A stretch of DNA of 64,000 nucleotides from Akkermansiaceae bacterium (GTDB lineage: Bacteria; Verrucomicrobiota; Verrucomicrobiia; Verrucomicrobiales; Akkermansiaceae). Each line of letters starts with the position of its first letter. Position 1 is the stretch's first letter. The position numbers and the translations under genes were made by a program. The stretch is taken from the NCBI GenBank assembly GCA_021202525.1, contig JAJQCV010000015.1, positions 5,020-69,019 on the forward strand, written 5' to 3'. The notes below the pieces were generated by a model. The model did no database searches. It saw only the letters and a list, made by a program, of their open reading frames with translations, and was not told the DNA's origin. Below are positions 44,196-48,323 of the stretch, one piece after another.

Positions 44196-45581
44196 ATGAA
44201 ACTTCCCGCCACCCGTGTAGCCGTCCTTGATGCCGTAGCCCTTTCCCGCCAGATGATGGAACACATGCCCAGGCTTTCCGCCTGGGCGGAGCGCCAGCGC
44301 ATTTCCTCCTTCCCTCCGGCCTTTCCGGCGGTCACCTGCACGGCGCAGAGCTCCTACATCACCGGCCTCGCCCCGGAGGAGCACGCCATCCCCGGCAACG
44401 GCTGGTACAACAGGAACATGAACGAGGTGCAGTTCTGGAAGCAATCAAACAAACTGGTGCAGGGACCGCGCATCTGGGAAAAGCTGAAGAACCTGTACGG
44501 CCCCTCCTTCACCTGCGCCAAACTCTTCTGGTGGTACAACATGTACTCCACTGCGGACTGGAGCATCACGCCGCGGCCCATGTACCCGGCGGACGGCCGC
44601 AAAATCTTTGACATCTATACGCAGCCCATGGACCTGCGGGAAACCATCAAGCAGGACCTTGGGGAATTCCCCTTCCCCACATTCTGGGGCCCCATGGCCG
44701 GCATCGGCGCCACGCAATGGATTGCGGACTCCGTCCGGTGGATTGAGCAAAAATACCGCCCCAATCTCAACCTGGTCTATCTGCCCTACCTGGACTACGA
44801 CCTCCAGAAATTCGGCCCCTCCTCCGGGGAGGCGGCCAAGGCGGCCCGGGCCATGGACGATCTTCTTTGCGACCTGATCGACTTCCTGGAACGGGAGGGC
44901 GTCACGCCGATCATCGTAAGCGAATACGGCATTTCCGACGTCTCCCGCACGGTAACCCTGAACCGCCTCTTCCGGGAACGCGGCTGGATCACCGTCAAGC
45001 CGGAACTGGGAACGGAAATGCTGGACGGCGGAGCTTCCAAAGCCTTCGCCGTGGCCGACCACCAAGTGGCCCAGATTTACGTCAACGACCCCTCCGTGCG
45101 GGAGGAAGTAAAAGCCCTGCTCTCCGCCACCCCCGGCGTGGAGGAAATCCGGGAGACGAACTTTTCCGGCCTGAATCCGGCCGCCTGCGAACGCCTGCCG
45201 GACTTCACCGCCGTGGCGGCCCCGGACACATGGTTCACCTACTACTACTGGACGGACGACGCCAAGGCGCCGGACTTCGCCCGCTGCGTGGACATTCACC
45301 GCAAACCCGGCTACGACCCCGCGGAAATGTTCTTTGATCCGGCCCTCTCCTTCCCCATGCTCCACGCTGCCCTGTTCCTGCTGAAAAAGAAACTGGGCTT
45401 TCGCGCCCTGATGAAAGTCACTCCCCTCAACGGGGACCAGGTGAAAGGCTCCCACGGCAGGGACAACGTACCGGACTTCCAGCAGCCCGTCTTCATCGGT
45501 CCTGCCCGCCTGCCGGAGGTCCATTCTCCGCGGGACGTGCATGAAGCCATTTTGGCGGCCTTCGCCTCCGACTTCCCATAA
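44196..45581 (+). CDS. Alkaline phosphatase superfamily nucleotide pyrophosphatase/phosphodiesterase (EboF-like)
   Basis: FPAVTCTAQSS, GNGWY, VYLPYLDYDLQKFGP, SEYGI, AVADHQVAQIY, DIHRKPGYDPAEMF, KGSHG. Confidence 0.82.
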   Translation: MKLPATRVAVLDAVALSRQMMEHMPRLSAWAERQRISSFPPAFPAVTCTAQSSYITGLAPEEHAIPGNGWYNRNMNEVQFWKQSNKLVQGPRIWEKLKNLYGPSFTCAKLFWWYNMYSTADWSITPRPMYPADGRKIFDIYTQPMDLRETIKQDLGEFPFPTFWGPMAGIGATQWIADSVRWIEQKYRPNLNLVYLPYLDYDLQKFGPSSGEAAKAARAMDDLLCDLIDFLEREGVTPIIVSEYGISDVSRTVTLNRLFRERGWITVKPELGTEMLDGGASKAFAVADHQVAQIYVNDPSVREEVKALLSATPGVEEIRETNFSGLNPAACERLPDFTAVAAPDTWFTYYYWTDDAKAPDFARCVDIHRKPGYDPAEMFFDPALSFPMLHAALFLLKKKLGFRALMKVTPLNGDQVKGSHGRDNVPDFQQPVFIGPARLPEVHSPRDVHEAILAAFASDFP

Positions 45582-45617
45582 AGAGGAAACAGCCGGAAGA
45601 CGGCGCGCTTCCACGGG

Positions 45618-45642
45618 AAAAAACTCCGGACTTCTGTCCGGA
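45618..45642 (-). terminator. Possible terminator of the cdaA-bioD unit
   Basis: TCCGGAC/GTCCGGA hairpin followed by a T6 run on the minus strand. Confidence 0.5.
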
Positions 45643-45670
45643 CCGCTTTCATTCCGGATGCCTCACCCCG

Positions 45671-46312
45671 TCAGCCCAGGCGTTCCAGCAGGGCGTCCAC
45701 GTCCAGGGAATCCTGCCCGTGGATCAATTCACCCAGCACAGGCACGTCGGAAAACTCCTCAATCATGCTCCGGTTCGTCACGCAGGCGGTATCCCATTCA
45801 TCCTTCACATTGTTGAAAATGATCCCCAGGCACTCCAACCCGCGCGCCTTGATGGCGTCAAGCGTCAGCAGAGCGTGGTTGATGGCTCCCAGCTTGTTGC
45901 CGATCACCAAAAGAATGGGAAGATGGAAATCTGCGGCCATGTCGCTGAATCTCCGCTCTGCCGCGATCGGCACCTCCCAGCCGCCCACGCCTTCCACCAG
46001 CACGCAGTCATGCGCGGCGGCCAAAGCCTCATAAGCGCGGCGCACAGCCTCTTCATCCACCTGCGTATTCTCCAGCCTGGCGGCCACATAGGGACAGGTG
46101 GCATTCTTCAAAAACACGGGGTTCAACTCATCCAGCGTCAGGCCTTCCGGCCCCGCCTCCCGCAGAAGCCGGGCATCCTGCCTGTCTCCGCAGGCCACGG
46201 GCTTGAATCCCGCGGCATTCACACCCCGTTCCCTCAGGGCCTTCACAATCAGGCAGCTCACGTAAGTCTTGCCTGCTTCCGTATCAGTTCCGGTAACGAT
46301 AAAATTTCTCAT
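45671..46312 (-). CDS. bioD: Dethiobiotin synthase
   Basis: TGTDTEAGKT, FKPVACG, LVEGVGG, NKLGAINHALLT. Confidence 0.94.
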   Translation of the reverse strand: MRNFIVTGTDTEAGKTYVSCLIVKALRERGVNAAGFKPVACGDRQDARLLREAGPEGLTLDELNPVFLKNATCPYVAARLENTQVDEEAVRRAYEALAAAHDCVLVEGVGGWEVPIAAERRFSDMAADFHLPILLVIGNKLGAINHALLTLDAIKARGLECLGIIFNNVKDEWDTACVTNRSMIEEFSDVPVLGELIHGQDSLDVDALLERLG

Positions 46313-46323
46313 GATGGTAAGCT

Positions 46324-46476
46324 TCAGGGATGGGATCTTCTGATCTCCTCCAGTTGCGCGCGGGACGGCGCGGCATCATTCGTGGTTACCCAGTGGTTGA
46401 TGAATGACCAGATGATGACGGCCAGCACCAGGCAGAACAACTTGGCTGGCCAGTTAAGCAATAGCAGTTTTTTCAT
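46324..46476 (-). CDS. 50 aa single-TM protein resembling the CdaR/YbbR membrane anchor (not in the ORF track)
   Basis: MKKLLLLNWPAKLFCLVLAVIIWSFINHWVTTNDAAPSRAQLEEIRRSHP; overlaps the cdaA 3' end by 23 nt and ends 11 nt before bioD. Confidence 0.7.
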   Translation of the reverse strand: MKKLLLLNWPAKLFCLVLAVIIWSFINHWVTTNDAAPSRAQLEEIRRSHP

Positions 46477-47245
46477 TGGAAGGGGAAATATTCAGCAGCT
46501 CTTCAAGACGGGCCTTCAACTGTTCCGGATTCAGGTTGCGCTCCAGCTTGCCACCCACGGCCAGGGCAATGGCTCCCGTTTCCTCGGACACCACCACCAC
46601 CACGCAATCACTCTCCTCGGACATGCCCACGCCGGCCCGGTGCCGCAGTCCCAGGGTACGGTCGCTCATCTCCTTCTGGGAAACGGGGAACACGCAGGCG
46701 GCCGCGGAAATCCGGTCACCGGAAATGACCACTCCACCGTCGTGAAGAGCGGTCTTCGTATGAAAAATGGTCAGGGCCAGTTCCGGGGAAAAAATGGCGT
46801 CCAGCTTCACGCCGGAATCCTCGATCGGCTTCATGCTGATGCTCCGTTCAAAAGCGAACAGGGCTCCGAACCGCTGGTTGGAAAGCTTGCTCACCGCCTT
46901 GCAGAAATTATCCAGGAAATCCACCCGCTGAAGCTTGGCGAAGGAGGAGAAAAACGGATGGCTGCCCAGCTTCGCCAGCCCCACGCGCAGCTCCGGCTGG
47001 AAAATCACCACCAGCGCCAGCGCCAGGCCGGGGGCGAAGATGCGCGTCAATATCCATGAAATTACGTTCAACTGGAAGAAAAAGGCCAGTACCACCAGGG
47101 CCAGGAAACAGGCGAACAGCCCCACCATGATGCGGGCGCCGCGCGTCGCATGGAAAGCGCGGTAAATCTGGTACAGGAACACCCACAGGATGAAAATTTC
47201 AACGATCGCCCTGAGCGCATCCTTGATCACAATCCAGTCCCACAT
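46454..47245 (-). CDS. cdaA: Diadenylate cyclase, CdaA/DacA type
   Basis: Three N-terminal TM helices, VVIFQPELR, LHDGGVVI, GLRHRAG, VVSEETGAI. Start 47245 preferred because the GTG at 47251 abuts a -10 element. Confidence 0.93.
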   Translation of the reverse strand: MWDWIVIKDALRAIVEIFILWVFLYQIYRAFHATRGARIMVGLFACFLALVVLAFFFQLNVISWILTRIFAPGLALALVVIFQPELRVGLAKLGSHPFFSSFAKLQRVDFLDNFCKAVSKLSNQRFGALFAFERSISMKPIEDSGVKLDAIFSPELALTIFHTKTALHDGGVVISGDRISAAACVFPVSQKEMSDRTLGLRHRAGVGMSEESDCVVVVVSEETGAIALAVGGKLERNLNPEQLKARLEELLNISPSNEKTAIA

Positions 47246-47336
47246 GGGCACAAGCTACACAACAACCCCGACGATTGCAACACCGATCCTTTCCTTCCCT
47301 GTTGCCACGCGGGACGGGAACTGCTATAAGCACAGC

Positions 47337-48323
47337 ATGAAATTCCGGGTATTTCTCTCTCTGCTATCCGCCGCGCTCATCCTCTCCATCTCCACGGGCT
47401 GCATCATCTCCCACTGCACCACGCCCGGAAACGGCACGGCACCAGCCTCCGCCGTGCGGCCCGGTCTGGAAGGCGAACTGAAAAAAGACGTCCGCTATCT
47501 GGCGAAAACCTGCCACCCCCGCCCGGCGGGCTATGAAAAAAACCAGGCCAAAGCCGTGGAATACATTGCCCGTTCCCTGGCGGACTCCGGAGCCAAAGTC
47601 ACCTATCAGCCCTTCACGGCGGACAAGCGCACCTTCGTCAACGTCAGCGCCGTCTTCTCCGGAAAATCAGCCAAAAGAATCATCGTAGGGGCGCACTACG
47701 ATACCTGCGGAGACACGCCCGGCGCGGACGACAACGCCAGCGGAGTCGCCGGGCTGCTGGCGCTGGGGCGCATGCTCAAAGGCATATCCCCCCAATACAC
47801 CATTGAACTCATCGCCTACGCCAACGAGGAACCTCCGTACTTCGCCACGGAACACATGGGAAGCGCACAGCACGCCCAAAAACTTTACACGGAACAAATA
47901 GGAGTCAAGGCCATGATCTGCCTGGAAATGATCGGCTACTTCTCCGACAAGGAAAACAGCCAGACCTATCCGGGGCCCGGCATGGGAACACTGTATCCGG
48001 ACAAGGGAAACTTCATCGCCATCGTAGGCAACTGGAACAGCGTCAGGCTGGGCCGCGACATCCAGAAAAGCATGCGCCCCTTCCTTCCCACCGTCCGCCT
48101 CAACCTGCCGCAGATCAAGGGCATGTGCATGGACTTCTCCGACCACCGCAACTTCTGGGCCAAAGACATGCCTGCCGTGATGATCACGGACACGTCCTTC
48201 TTCCGCAACCCGAACTACCACCAGCCCGGAGACCTTCCGGAAACGCTGGACTACCGCCGTATGGCCCAGGTGGTCCGCGGCGTCCACCAGGCCGTCCTGC
48301 ATCTGGCCACGGAAGAAAAATAA
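47337..48323 (+). CDS. M28 family peptidase, exported
   Basis: IVGAHYDT, PGADDNASGVA, YANEEPPYF, LEMIGY, FSDHRNFW, NYHQPGD. Confidence 0.87.
   Translation: MKFRVFLSLLSAALILSISTGCIISHCTTPGNGTAPASAVRPGLEGELKKDVRYLAKTCHPRPAGYEKNQAKAVEYIARSLADSGAKVTYQPFTADKRTFVNVSAVFSGKSAKRIIVGAHYDTCGDTPGADDNASGVAGLLALGRMLKGISPQYTIELIAYANEEPPYFATEHMGSAQHAQKLYTEQIGVKAMICLEMIGYFSDKENSQTYPGPGMGTLYPDKGNFIAIVGNWNSVRLGRDIQKSMRPFLPTVRLNLPQIKGMCMDFSDHRNFWAKDMPAVMITDTSFFRNPNYHQPGDLPETLDYRRMAQVVRGVHQAVLHLATEEK

Follow-up and report, generated by a model that had tools for sequence, protein, structure and literature searches.

A conserved 50-residue membrane protein encoded between cdaA and bioD in an Akkermansiaceae bacterium is a candidate CdaR reduced to its membrane anchor

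The closest described relatives of the small protein analyzed here are the CdaR (YbbR) proteins of Bacillus subtilis, Listeria monocytogenes, Staphylococcus aureus, Lactococcus lactis, and Chlamydia trachomatis, which are encoded directly after cdaA (dacA), with the start of their gene overlapping its stop. CdaR proteins are ∼300 to 480 residues long and have a basic N terminus followed by one transmembrane (TM) helix, with the shared motif N-(W/F/R)-x-x-K-L-x-x-x-x-L-A-x-x-x-W. Known CdaRs carry three or four extracytoplasmic YbbR domains, and fusions of CdaA with CdaR occur in some streptococci (PMC10243994). Two-hybrid assays have placed the contact between CdaR and CdaA in their membrane domains, and GlmM is reported to bind the catalytic domain of CdaA (PMC6368335, PMC10243994). 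CdaR is reported to activate CdaA in B. subtilis (assayed in E. coli) and to inhibit it in L. monocytogenes and P. gingivalis, whereas S. aureus shows no clear effect (PMC10117814, PMC9259658, PMC6368335). In C. trachomatis, DacA needs YbbR for c-di-AMP synthesis, and YbbR appears to be limiting (PMC12422730). The signal read by the YbbR domains and the mode by which CdaR controls CdaA are unresolved (PMC10117814, PMC6368335); how cells sense osmolarity to set c-di-AMP is likewise not understood, according to a 2023 review (PMC10117814). Our search of the literature, whose coverage was incomplete, found no description of a domain-less or truncated CdaR.

The window, by which we mean the whole 64,000-nucleotide stretch of Akkermansiaceae DNA that we analyzed, encodes a membrane diadenylate cyclase, CdaA, on the minus strand (46454..47251), whose DAC domain is preceded by three TM helices at the N terminus. 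Its product matches the Pfam models DAC (1.7e-36) and CdaA_N (8.8e-9) and scores 218.3 bits against TIGR00159, above the equivalog cut-off of 188.8 bits. Immediately downstream on the same strand is an open reading frame (ORF) of 50 codons with an ATG start (46324..46476), here called mini-cdaR, whose translation is MKKLLLLNWPAKLFCLVLAVIIWSFINHWVTTNDAAPSRAQLEEIRRSHP. It overlaps the 3′ end of cdaA by 23 nt in a different frame (46454..46476, minus strand), and its stop lies 11 nt before the ATG of bioD; the ORF thus fills the 141-nt gap between cdaA and bioD, and the coordinates bear out what the sequence-only reading had noticed about a small frame running across the cdaA stop. Its product, mini, is a single-pass membrane protein without a YbbR domain. 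Codons 9 to 31 (46384..46452, minus strand) encode the TM helix, with the motif NW-x-x-K-L-x-C-L-x-L-A-x-x-x-W; codons 32 to 50 (46327..46383, minus strand) encode a tail, predicted to be periplasmic, in which a variable linker precedes a conserved C-terminal L-E-E-I-R-R-S-H-P. In its position after cdaA, the overlap with the cdaA stop, its basic N terminus, and its one helix, mini resembles CdaR; it differs in being 50 residues long and in lacking any YbbR domain, so that sensing through such domains would not be possible.

The last gene of the transcription unit is bioD (45671..46312, minus strand), which encodes dethiobiotin synthase (153 bits against TIGR00347; cut-off, 83). A terminator-like hairpin followed by a T-run (45615..45642, minus strand) lies 29 nt 3′ of the bioD stop and probably marks where the operon ends. 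Because this hairpin follows bioD and the genes flanking the trio are on the opposite strand, we take the unit to be cdaA-mini-cdaR-bioD. An Rfam scan of 45400-47500 gave no match and hence no sign of a known RNA element. The cdaA ORF as listed begins at a GTG at 47251 (MPMWDW...), and an ATG is found two codons further on, at 47245 (MWDWIV...); 47245 is the likelier start because close relatives and gene calls begin with MWDWI.

The window is G+C rich and contains dozens of spurious ORFs of the size of mini-cdaR, many of them of at least 50 residues; a 50-codon frame is therefore not beyond chance, and this is the background from which one could argue that mini-cdaR is a chance open frame without biological meaning. 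Since its length is unremarkable, the case for a gene rests on conservation and on the pattern of substitutions. A six-frame search found the ORF in 37 of 41 related genomes. The sequence-only reading had considered that the ORF might not be conserved; in the related loci that we fetched, which come from the genus and from at least five further families within the order, mini-cdaR is directly 3′ of cdaA without exception (30 of 30). In all 30 it has an ATG start, overlaps or abuts the cdaA stop, and encodes 50 to 75 residues, with start codons of the relatives picked by rule; in most loci the overlap with cdaA is 1 to 41 nt, and for relatives within the order it was also given as 17 to 41 nt. 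The gene order cdaA-mini-cdaR-bioD is maintained across the order. In an alignment of 29 minis, K12, L16, A19, and W23 are invariant, and N8, W9, L13, and P50 are nearly so. Although the sequence-only reading described the ORF as unannotated, gene callers have found mini in public collections, where it forms 20 near-identical clusters, every one of them unnamed; some of their members are from data derived from NCBI.

Substitutions in mini-cdaR point the same way. For codons 9 to 49, which lie outside the overlap with cdaA, dN/dS is 0.08 to 0.33 in comparisons with three relatives of 84 to 86% protein identity, against 0.11 to 0.13 for bioD and 0.02 to 0.06 for cdaA; dS in these comparisons ranges from 0.7 to over 2, that is, into saturation. 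Among 14 more distant members of the genus, several invariant residues (R38, I49, R50, and P54 among them) are specified by three to six different codons, which indicates that selection acts on the amino acids, including those of the C-terminal tail, and not on an open frame alone. The minis of close relatives differ only in residues 31 to 42, and most of the genus shares the tail motif E-W-x-I-D-D-I-R-L-S-x-P-E. We conclude that mini-cdaR is present, conserved, and under purifying selection. Conservation, selection, and synteny all argue against a chance frame, which we regard as already refuted and to which we assign virtually no probability. Some metagenomic variants of mini (P0012-P0016; window 46284-46379, minus strand) switch frame after about residue 35 (...RNWRRSE.PIPE...); these switches are probably single-base indels in the assemblies, and they illustrate how easily so small a gene is mis-called.

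Transcripts of a relative that is 95 to 97% identical were available from three RNA-seq runs. The assembled RNA contigs cover ∼45604-47231 without a break, including both gene junctions, and one contig (46241-47203) contains nearly all of cdaA, the whole of mini-cdaR, and the start of bioD. Coverage stops at both borders of the operon: one contig ends at 45604, and past cdaA, in the intergenic DNA, depth falls to nearly zero. These data, which are assembled contigs of a near relative in which some DNA carry-over is possible, support cotranscription of cdaA, mini-cdaR, and bioD. The 23-nt overlap between cdaA and the start of mini-cdaR also suggests that their translation is coupled.

Such coupling could in principle account for the persistence of the ORF: mini might be a relic, an inert peptide whose frame stays open owing to its overlap with cdaA and to the coupling of bioD or glmM to cdaA. 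The arrangement of the locus is compatible with a relic, with the start of mini-cdaR inside cdaA, its stop close to the bioD start, and similar overlaps usual in relatives; so is the fact that tail length and linker sequence differ between families. Coupling, however, constrains only frame and length, yet dN/dS outside the overlap is similar to that of bioD, invariant residues are encoded by as many as six different codons, and the motif NW..KL.CL.LA...W is kept throughout the class even though synonymous sites are saturated. For these reasons, we consider an inert relic improbable.

Scans of the mini-cdaR ORF with Pfam (E ≤ 1) and NCBIfam gave no match. Its relationship to CdaR was assessed by comparing profiles. 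Aligned with hhalign, a profile of 29 minis matched one of 26 full-length YbbR proteins with 95.4% probability (E = 2e-8), N terminus on N terminus. These 26 proteins, all with a clear ATG start, are 310 to 356 residues long, and most begin R-N-N-W-x-x-K-L-x-A-x-x-L-A-x-x-x-W-Y. The match spans about 36 to 44 columns, largely one TM helix. This, together with the failure of any Pfam or NCBIfam model to recognize the ORF, is what might be expected if mini were an unrelated small membrane protein whose likeness to CdaR reflected convergence or hydrophobic composition. Profile matches of single TM helices can indeed be inflated by composition. In a rerun, the real score was 46.3, compared with 9.3 ± 2.0 (maximum, 15.6) for 100 column-shuffled controls and 15.9 for the reversed control; the shuffle control and the position of the gene lower the risk of such inflation but do not abolish it.

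A search of 1.84 billion representative proteins with the mini profile returned 358 matches at E ≤ 0.001. Most are 40 to 100 residues long, but three of 306 to 331 residues are genuine YbbR proteins, carrying YbbR domains and matched at their residues 3 to 45. Among the distant small matches that we sampled, all four lie directly after cdaA. Full-length YbbR proteins have the same position: the genes of the best 30 YbbR loci in a sample of the phylum all directly follow cdaA (30 of 30) and overlap or abut its stop. Furthermore, CdaRs shortened to one or two YbbR domains occupy this slot in other members of the class, and the order cdaA-X-glmM is kept. The N terminus of one shortened CdaR (L065), LVLAICTWSFVNH, is strikingly close to that of the window's mini, LVLAVIIWSFINH. 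Taken together, these observations make it highly improbable that mini is an unrelated protein. By descent, position, and retained anchor, mini appears to be a cdaR ortholog cut down to its anchor, which agrees with the sequence-only reading of mini as a CdaR-like N-terminal membrane anchor. By the Pfam definition, which calls for at least one YbbR domain (PF07949), mini is not a YbbR-family protein. With permissive settings, hhalign also placed the tail (E-W-x-I-D-D-I-R-L-S) onto the start of the first YbbR domain (E-x-x-I-x-x-V-P-V-x-I) with a per-column confidence near zero; that the tail may be left over from the linker and the initial strand of YbbR domain 1 is a suggestion only.

The sequence-only reading held that the sensory domains had been lost and raised the concern that this could be a strain-specific truncation, with orthologs retaining full YbbR domains. 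No PF07949 match above the cut-off was found in the window's own genome, where the best (9.8 bits) was in an unrelated place, and no YbbR domain was found in the genomes sampled from the genus, family, or order. The loss thus held up and the concern did not: the loss is ancient and extends across the lineage. A YbbR protein is present in 115 of the 201 genomes in our sample of the phylum. Within the class, a YbbR match was found in 28 of 151 genomes; these are shortened CdaRs, all encoded directly after cdaA, either 216 to 232 residues long with two YbbR stretches or 127 to 158 residues long with one. At 22 shortened CdaR loci, the gene is directly 3′ of cdaA and overlaps or abuts its stop. 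The same slot is also occupied by proteins of 310 to 356 residues with two or three detectable YbbR stretches and by proteins of 44 to 94 residues with none. The one- and two-domain CdaRs resemble mini in position, in the overlap with cdaA, and in their very similar N termini; they differ in keeping their domain or domains, whereas the window's mini ends ∼19 residues past its helix.

Among the 102 genomes of the class that have a CdaA-type cyclase, 65 have a mini profile match beside cdaA and no YbbR (∼58 of these are clear, and ∼7 have long open frames, which might represent one-domain forms that fall short of the Pfam threshold); of the remainder, 27 have a YbbR-containing CdaR, 8 have neither, and in 2 the match lies elsewhere in the genome, according to a cross-tabulation of three class-wide searches whose tables were transcribed by hand. 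In the 65 genomes, the median distance from the DAC domain to the mini match is 97 nt. When 101 CdaA sequences were placed in a maximum-likelihood tree, the label "mini" needed one change only, and the forms with one or two domains branched between the minis and the full-length proteins; because the branch that sets the minis apart is weakly supported (47/22), a single loss of YbbR domains is the simplest reading and is not proven. Absence of the domains from CdaR is a lineage-wide state that includes the group to which Akkermansia belongs, and the series provides a clean example of a multidomain regulator that would have been reduced stepwise (3 or 4, 2, 1, and 0 YbbR domains) to a small membrane protein.

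Where families of the class lack both mini and YbbR, CdaA is replaced by a different, longer DAC protein. Such DAC proteins of another type were seen in families f9, f11, f12, f13, f16, and f54 and also in f55, f64, f73, f82, and f88, most of which are without mini or YbbR; their frames are either ∼450 to 500 residues long (E = 1e-19 to 1e-24) or ∼470 to 580 residues long (E = 1e-31 to 1e-33).

Charge distribution predicts the orientation of mini in the membrane. Within 15 residues of the helix there are, on average over 30 sequences, 4.4 lysines plus arginines on the N-terminal side and 1.7 on the C-terminal side; with its basic residues on the N side, mini is predicted to have its N terminus inside and its C terminus outside, which matches the orientation of CdaR. 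The best 19-residue hydropathy window has a mean Kyte-Doolittle value of 2.26. AlphaFold2, given mini alone and the 29-sequence alignment, predicted a helix at residues 9 to 33, with a pLDDT of about 88 to 90 over residues 11 to 30, and a short, less confident second helix at residues 39 to 48.

In one of 151 genomes of the genus (G224), CdaA and mini are encoded in one frame of 342 residues (L086:661-1689; G224:C45), and the mini part is not preceded by an ATG in this frame. A linker of ∼35 residues precedes the helix, and the mini helix becomes the fourth, C-terminal TM helix of the fused protein. This frame could be an assembly error; it looks like a natural CdaA-mini fusion, which would fit an N-in orientation of mini. 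It is of the same kind as the streptococcal CdaA-CdaR fusions, with the differences that those carry a full YbbR ectodomain, while the one in G224 has mini only and is a single case.

The gene after mini-cdaR in the window is bioD and not, as in the canonical cdaA-cdaR-glmM module, glmM. The sequence-only reading took this to mean that a cdaA-mini-bioD operon replaces the canonical one. The order stands as described for the window. Several sister families still have cdaA-mini-glmM, with mini in the cdaR slot and glmM retained after it, and a metagenomic contig (L118, 1708-4809) carries cdaA-mini-glmM-bioD. Because these arrangements occur, bioD did not simply replace glmM. The order on L118 links the canonical module to that of the window, which is best read as a cdaA-mini-glmM-type operon after loss or relocation of glmM. 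In the window's genome, no GlmM scored above the TIGR01455 cut-off (best, 76.5 bits; cut-off, 447.55). The best match is a 650-residue frame of the phosphohexomutase type that lies outside the window (G000:C129:19783-20721). Control of CdaA through GlmM, as known from Bacillota, may be absent or different here.

That the downstream gene changes by lineage (bioD, glmM, or others) allows another interpretation, in which mini works with a partner other than CdaA, such as BioD, GlmM, or another membrane protein, and regulation of c-di-AMP has been lost; the periplasmic tail, with a conserved motif of its own but without known function, could be accommodated in the same way. We find such a partner distinctly improbable, because cdaA is the sole neighbor common to every locus examined, because both mini and YbbR proteins are missing from the families that have the other type of cyclase, and because one genome fuses mini with CdaA.

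The explanation that we believe to be probable is that mini is a cdaR-derived single-pass protein, cotranscribed with cdaA and bioD, that serves CdaA as a fourth-helix subunit. We propose this role for mini because it keeps exactly the module through which CdaR contacts CdaA: what it retains is the helix alone, the part of full-length CdaR reported to contact the CdaA membrane domain. The short basic N terminus would lie in the cytoplasm, a helix of ∼23 residues would cross the inner membrane, and a tail of ∼19 residues is predicted to extend into the periplasm. Coupled translation from the 23-nt overlap would match the amounts of mini to those of CdaA, and the helix would join the three of the CdaA membrane domain, packing against them as a fourth and setting the stability, oligomeric state, or activity of the cyclase. 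Chlamydia is a lineage related to that of the window; since its DacA needs YbbR, an activating or stabilizing role is the likeliest one for mini. Mini would then be a constitutive activating or stabilizing subunit and not a sensor of the cell envelope, and this lineage would have abandoned the use of YbbR domains to sense the envelope. Translation of mini, its topology, its binding to CdaA, and the direction of its effect on c-di-AMP are all points that we infer from these comparisons.

Small single-helix partners of larger membrane proteins are familiar from other systems. MgrB (with PhoQ), KdpF (with KdpABC), and AcrZ (with AcrB) are accessory subunits of ∼30 to 60 residues encoded next to or near their partners, and packing of helix against helix in the membrane has been proposed for them, as we propose it for mini. 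Unlike mini, they are not products of domain loss from a multidomain regulator, and none of them is known to act on a diadenylate cyclase.

A large bacterial group that keeps only the helix of CdaR, under purifying selection, amounts to a natural deletion experiment, and it points to the contact of this helix with those of CdaA as the part of CdaR that cannot be dispensed with; mini offers a 50-residue system in which that contact can be tested. A stronger version, which we consider unlikely, is that the functional core of CdaR consists of nothing but the TM helix, with the YbbR domains dispensable, and that the pair of CdaA and mini answers a signal within the membrane. If so, the signal could be lateral tension, lipid composition, or a lipid-linked cell wall precursor; CdaA and mini would form a minimal two-part sensor of osmotic or envelope state, and the tail motif (E-E-I-R-R-S-H-P in the window) would be a second contact site. 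Such a sensor could help to explain how osmolarity is sensed to set c-di-AMP. Reviews describe c-di-AMP from the gut bacterium Akkermansia as triggering the STING pathway of the host and connect it with how patients respond to cancer immunotherapy. If a small protein sets the output of CdaA, it would be an overlooked control point in Akkermansia, of a kind that annotation and mutant screens easily miss.

Finally, the overlap between the two genes is much longer in some other families of the class. In most loci of families f15, f19, and f70 (L088-L099), mini-cdaR overlaps the 3′ end of cdaA by 107 to 122 nt; CdaA is ∼290 residues long there, and its extra C-terminal ∼30 residues are encoded in an alternative frame over the N terminus and helix of mini, a possible conserved dual-coding stretch.
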